Shown: in pieces, positions 63,925-64,000 of the stretch
Numbering within the stretch: the stretch's first letter is position 1
Layout: every line of letters starts with the position of its first letter
DNA from: Escherichia coli
GTDB taxonomy: Bacteria > Pseudomonadota > Gammaproteobacteria > Enterobacterales > Enterobacteriaceae
NCBI RefSeq assembly: GCF_003334305.1
Contig: NZ_QOWS01000018.1
Strand: one strand, 5' to 3'
Length of the DNA: 64,000 nt
Program-made: the position numbers and the translations under genes
The notes under the pieces: model-generated
Seen by the model: only the letters and a program-made list of their open reading frames with translations
What the model was told of the DNA's origin: nothing
Database searches by the model: none

Positions 63925-64000
63925 GATCCTACCCACGTAATATGGACACAGGCCTAAGCGAGGTTCTTGTTTTCAAATTGTTCCGGACTGAGGCCGCCAC
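63925..64000. mobile_element. Terminal inverted repeat and first bases of an IS3 copy (continues beyond the window)
   Basis: tgatcctacccacgtaatatggacacaggcctaagcgaggttcttgttttcaaattgttccggactgaggccgccac matches the recalled IS3 end. Confidence 0.8.

Follow-up and report, generated by a model that had tools for sequence, protein, structure and literature searches.

The 64,000-nt stretch of Escherichia coli DNA analysed here (the window) breaks off shortly after the stop codon of dgcT (ycdT), a diguanylate cyclase gene. The initial annotation read the last 76 nt as a terminal repeat of the insertion sequence IS3. Two questions follow: which IS3 copy is this, and how did it come to stand directly beside dgcT?

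The window terminates in TGATCCTACCCACGTAATATGGACACAGGCCTAAGCGAGGTTCTTGTTTTCAAATTGTTCCGGACTGAGGCCGCCAC, and positions 63924-64000 are 100% identical (77/77 bases) to the right end of IS3. Nucleotides 63925-64000 used as a query agree at 76/76 bases with IS3 copies in 3596 of 5426 complete E. coli genomes (E = 3e-31; median of three places per genome), and the feature annotated under every match is an 'IS3-like element IS3 family transposase'. A 31-nt pattern from the terminus has a single match in the window, and 100 shuffles gave none. Given this single occurrence and the perfect matches in thousands of records, a chance match is ruled out. The identification made in the initial annotation therefore holds, with the boundary displaced by one base. 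The first base of IS3 is the T at 63924, in the terminal 5'-TGATCC, and IS-only matches to the query 63850-64000 begin at query position 75, which is 63924. Because the 1258-bp element in the reference loci requires the T of TGATCC, and because the IS-only matches start at this base, the window contains 77 nt of IS3 rather than 76. The presence of an IS3 end at the window terminus is thus confirmed, and it is the end of an ordinary, already known IS3 copy.

Alignment of the two ends of a complete copy places the 39-bp right inverted repeat (IRR) at 63924-63962, starting with the terminal 5'-TG. Between IRR and the left inverted repeat (IRL) of the complete copy at reference locus L001, 28 of 39 positions agree, and both ends carry the terminal TG/CA. 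The OrfAB transposase binds IRR and cleaves it at the terminal CA/TG. Also present is the 3' end of orfB (insF; 63954-64000, minus strand). Translation of the minus strand over 63954-63998 yields GGLSPEQFENKNLA, the last 14 full codons, followed by a TAG stop codon at 63954-63956; the 288-aa OrfB encoded by the complete copy at L001 ends in this same peptide. Thus, the window shows the right, orfB-side end of IS3 (IRR) in reverse complement. The sequence of the left end (IRL) has no occurrence within the window, and neither end is found there in a second copy. The reverse-complement reading of the right end and the absence of the left end put the element on the minus strand, with its transposase genes directed towards dgcT. 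The stop codon of dgcT occupies 63911-63913, and IS3 begins after a 10-nt spacer (AGCGGCATTT; 63914-63923, plus strand) that marks the left breakpoint.

The sequence beyond the window could be followed in E. coli strain A7 (NZ_CP028767.1, from orangutan faeces), which is 100% identical to window positions 54000-64000 (all 10,001 bases) and carries both rare mutations of the window, in the dgcT G-run and in pgaA (W665*). Beyond the equivalent of position 64000, strain A7 runs on as a complete 1258-bp IS3 (window-equivalent 63924-65181, minus strand) with 0 differences from the copy in K-12 MG1655, followed by a truncated ymdE (ymdE') and then ycdU. The window itself stops 77 nt into the element, so completeness is judged from this genome, identical over the last 10 kb. 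The initial annotation had the IS body continuing past the window, to be checked by extending the sequence; what follows in strain A7 is indeed IS3, over its full length. The complete 1258-bp element occurs likewise in strain 120899, K-12 MG1655 and strain 2013C-3264, and in all genomes examined that have the exact left junction (loci L001, L002, L006 and L007).

The complete copy encodes orfA (99 aa) and orfB (288 aa), which overlap in the -1 frame at a CCAAAAGG stretch (seen in the continuation loci, outside the window), and the RefSeq annotation of complete copies gives a 'programmed frameshift'. OrfB scores 339.2 bits against the NCBIfam model NF033516 (transpos_IS3; cut-off 160; E = 3.3e-101). 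Nucleotide identity, imperfect inverted repeats of ~39 bp with TG...CA termini, a length of 1258 bp with orfA and orfB, and a DDE transposase all identify the element as IS3, the type element of the IS3 family. The window almost certainly ends inside a complete, standard IS3, whose orfA and orfB are fused through programmed -1 frameshifting to give a DDE transposase. IS3 transposition follows a copy-out, paste-in route through a circle. The intact reading frames and ends in strain A7 appear, from sequence, compatible with transposition activity. In the related elements IS2 and IS911, a strong junction promoter arises where the two ends abut in the circular intermediate (PMC3299598).

Which copy this is can be read from its junctions. 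A 151-nt query across the left junction (74 nt on the dgcT side and 77 nt of IS3) is covered to at least 80% in 2300 of 5426 complete E. coli genomes (~42%), K-12 derivatives among them. With a 601-nt query, the dgcT/IS3 junction is identical to the base in K-12 MG1655, where the copy is called IS3D, and in BL21(DE3); strain 120899 is also 100% identical over these last 601 bases of the window. The right junction, GTGCCTGGCAC in ymdE, is the same in strain A7, K-12 and strain 120899. Left junction and orientation in the window, and right junction in strain A7, are thus all equal to those of IS3D. The published K-12 arrangement, with IS3D (complement 1094245-1095502, 1258 bp) adjoining ycdT and followed by the pseudogene ymdE and then ycdU (PMC5635171), agrees with this, and the earlier suggestion that the insertion has the same relative position as in K-12 is borne out at single-base resolution. 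Downstream of dgcT there is almost certainly a complete, standard IS3, the same inherited copy as IS3D (insEF4) of K-12.

A simple insertion of IS3 leaves a 3-bp target duplication. The flanks here read GCGGCATTT on the left, ending in TTT, and GTGCCTGG on the right, beginning with GTG, and comparison of the flanks in K-12, strain 120899 and strain A7 revealed no 3-bp target duplication around IS3. The right flank starts mid-gene in ymdE, the remainder of which is annotated as ACP S-malonyltransferase, 'missing N-terminus'. O157:H7 carries no IS at the site. There, GCGGCATTT continues into TAGCGGGTGATT, 31,741 bp separate the two flanks, and ymdE has its full length. The distance between the breakpoints agrees with the size of O-island 47, 31,727 bp (PMC8565820). 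Encoded beyond this point in O157:H7 are an EAL-domain protein (pdeT/vmpA), a winged-helix regulator, fimbrial proteins, a filamentous-haemagglutinin pair and a fatty-acid-like cluster, then the full-length ACP S-malonyltransferase gene and ycdU. From its position, the winged-helix regulator gene is presumably grvA (z1531).

O157:H7 has a whole ymdE, whereas in IS3-bearing genomes the gene is severed precisely where the IS ends; the state with IS3 is therefore derived, and an ancestor bearing the island lost the segment. The lack of a target duplication bears on the history of this IS3 copy, not on the identity of the element, and is explained by a 31.7-kb deletion on the IRL side. The IS3 insertion of the initial annotation accordingly needs amending: IS3 is at the K-12 position, but the event was not a simple one, as there is no target duplication and the element replaces the 31.7-kb segment present in O157:H7.

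The far end of this deletion varies. In strain 2013C-3264, a complete IS3 with an identical left junction is joined on the right to a point in ymdE 185 bp further upstream. The two variants of the right junction map to L001 position 5783 and L006 position 3577 (window-equivalent ~65182, outside the window). The K-12-type right-junction query is covered in 2195 genomes, and the second type of junction occurs in 716; we take the 2195 to include the latter as two joined pieces, which leaves ~1479 genomes of the K-12 type (2195 - 716). Some ~105 genomes have the left junction with neither standard right junction. One left junction combined with two right junctions 185 bp apart suggests stepwise deletions next to the IS, and a fixed end with a variable far end is what deletions starting from one end of an IS produce. 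IS150, a member of the IS3 family, is reported to behave in this way: none of the 14 copies associated with deletions had target duplications, an IS had been at the site beforehand in each case, and the deletions often became longer with time (PMC11708052).

The most likely history of these junctions has three steps. IS3 would have inserted just downstream of dgcT in an island-carrying ancestor; a deletion from the IRL end would then have removed the island together with the 5' part of ymdE; and a further 185 bp would have been lost in one sub-lineage. Intermediates were sought with synthetic queries that joined (1) the IS3 left-end side, TTT and the O157 sequence downstream of dgcT, or (2) O157 ymdE and the IS3 right end. 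Neither a simple insertion with a TTT duplication and the island retained nor IS3 inside an otherwise intact ymdE was found (0 of 5426 genomes each, at query coverage of at least 80%). With no intermediate genomes, the order of events and the mechanism of deletion remain inferred.

For the mechanism, we favour transposase-mediated adjacent deletion as probable. Alternatively, two IS3 copies in direct repeat, located downstream of dgcT and within ymdE, may have recombined homologously and so eliminated the island. This would likewise leave one IS3, mismatched flanks and no target duplication, and recombination between identical ISs is a common reason for missing duplications (PMC11708052). Two right junctions would, however, require two separate insertions into ymdE, or else a later adjacent deletion anyway, and a genome with IS3 in an otherwise intact ymdE was not found among the 5426. 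We therefore consider recombination between two IS3 copies a possible but distinctly less likely route than adjacent deletion.

Much less credible, and in our judgement very improbable, is the reverse polarity, in which the ancestor was arranged like K-12, O157:H7 acquired the 31.7-kb island later and IS3 deleted nothing. In comparison with K-12, O-island 47 does count as an O157 'island' (PMC8565820), but ymdE of O157:H7 is full-length and contiguous with the island, whereas IS3-bearing genomes have a fragment without the N-terminus that starts at the IS3 end. A gene cut short against an IS is the mark of a derived state. Loss of the segment from an island-bearing ancestor thus remains the preferred reading.

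Two readings that concern the element itself are more improbable still. A mere remnant, with the 77 nt as a solo or truncated end of IS3, could be entertained because the IS body beyond 64000 is not visible in the window and isolated 43-nt IS3-end fragments occur elsewhere, but a full 1258-bp element is present in each examined genome sharing the exact junction, including strain A7 with its 10-kb identity and two rare mutations in common, which makes a remnant extremely unlikely. Equally far-fetched is an independent insertion into a hotspot, matching the K-12 position only by coincidence: most E. coli genomes carry several IS3 copies (median of three places) and the region downstream of dgcT varies between lineages (also PMC5635171), yet the junction is base-identical, the orientation and the absence of a target duplication are the same, strain A7 has the same right junction in ymdE and an IS sequence identical to IS3D, and two independent events would not have given the same pair of breakpoints for a 31.7-kb deletion. 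A complete IS3, inherited in common with K-12, is the reading retained below.

The initial annotation also proposed that the insertion may affect the expression of downstream genes, and such a putative effect is plausible. A consensus scan identified no promoter-like site in window positions 63500-64000. Two weak promoter-like sites were detected in strain A7 (locus L007, 1700-3700), both inside the IS body; shuffles gave a mean of 2.5, so this is no excess. Scans of window 63500-64000 and of L007 1700-3700 revealed no terminator-like site between dgcT and the IS. Predicted RNA folding over 111 nt across the junction yields a z-score of 0.26; for the IS-free O157 site the value is -0.26. Neither folds better than shuffles. 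No notable structure is present, nor does dgcT have a terminator of its own for the IS to displace. From this layout, read-through from dgcT could enter the IS in antisense to the transposase genes, and transcription of the transposase genes could extend into dgcT. On the far side, ycdU would be cut off from the former upstream operon of the island-bearing state. This genome type would also lack the island genes for pdeT/vmpA, grvA, and the fimbrial, haemagglutinin-like and fatty-acid-like functions.

It is doubtful that this IS3 copy has a regulatory role, as a functional boundary rather than a neutral scar. If it did, loss of the c-di-GMP phosphodiesterase gene pdeT/vmpA beside the cyclase gene dgcT, together with convergent transposase genes and no intervening terminator, could rewire c-di-GMP control of the pga biofilm operon. 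Selection could then have favoured the rewired control and fixed it across much of the species.

The genes beside the junction carry lesions of their own. The dgcT gene (62554-63913, plus strand) is split by a +1 frameshift at the G-run 63031-63038 and appears in the window as two open reading frames, 62482-63063 and 63023-63913. The run comprises 8 G in the window, 7 G and a C in O157:H7, and 6 G and CC in K-12. In strain A7 dgcT is annotated as 'frameshifted', and the exact 151-nt G-run allele occurs in 7 of 4089 genomes, strain A7 among them. Two assemblies of strain NCTC86 disagree at this run: NZ_LR217818.1 has the form of the window and NZ_CP019778.1 is one base shorter. This disagreement indicates either a slippage-prone run or a homopolymer sequencing error in dgcT. 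Strain 120899 has a different dgcT frameshift, a 7-nt TTGTTTT duplication a few bases upstream of the G-run. For that reason strain 120899 was rejected as the source of the window; strain A7 does fit. Also identified in the window is a nonsense mutation in pgaA (59544-61967, minus strand), W665* (TGG to TAG at 59973-59975), which truncates the 807-aa PNAG export porin; codon 665 is TGG in K-12, strain 120899 and O157:H7. If the dgcT and pgaA changes are not sequencing errors, they suggest that the pga biofilm module is decaying in the window strain, in which both the PNAG biofilm export porin and the neighbouring cyclase would be inactive.

Some further genomes show similarity to the window, at 95-98% identity, only as far as ~63876-63879 (query positions 1-477/480), ~35 nt before the dgcT stop codon. 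As similarity in these other lineages ends before the stop codon, the 3' end of dgcT and the sequence beyond it vary, and the locus is a variable spot. Variation was also observed downstream of ycdU. Strain A7 has one rtT repeat there, followed by a tyrosine integrase gene, with no tRNA-Ser annotated (L007 4701-6258, ~2.7-4.3 kb past the window end); K-12 has three rtT repeats, tRNA-Ser and ghrA; and an integrase adjoins ycdU in O157:H7 too. The arrangement in strain A7 suggests an island inserted in the serX region.

In summary, the copy beside dgcT is K-12 IS3D in another strain. It is annotated in RefSeq and described in the literature, and as an element it adds nothing new. Its practical use is as a marker. 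The dgcT/IS3 junction places this genome among the ~42% of complete E. coli genomes that lost an island of the O-island 47 type, the two right-junction variants could serve as a simple lineage marker, and the site offers a clean natural example of a large IS3-associated deletion without target duplication.

Compared with K-12, the window has the left junction, orientation and 77-nt end of IS3D, and strain A7 shares the whole element and the right junction in ymdE. There is no difference in the element itself; the flank differs, in that dgcT is intact in K-12, with 6 G and CC, and +1 frameshifted in the window. The O157:H7 locus is the same as the window in dgcT and the first 10 downstream bases, and the same as the IS3-bearing genomes from the middle of ymdE onward; between these it has 31,741 bp where the genome type of the window has a 1258-bp IS3. 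The closest parallel in process is provided by the adjacent deletions of IS150 in the long-term E. coli evolution experiment (PMC11708052), where, as here, the IS lies at the edge of a large deletion, target duplications are absent and deletions extend stepwise from one IS end. The IS150 events were watched as they happened, with the IS alone at earlier time points, whereas the corresponding intermediate at the dgcT locus is present in 0 of 5426 genomes. Unlike the IS150 cases, the deletion beside dgcT is old enough to be common to ~42% of complete genomes.
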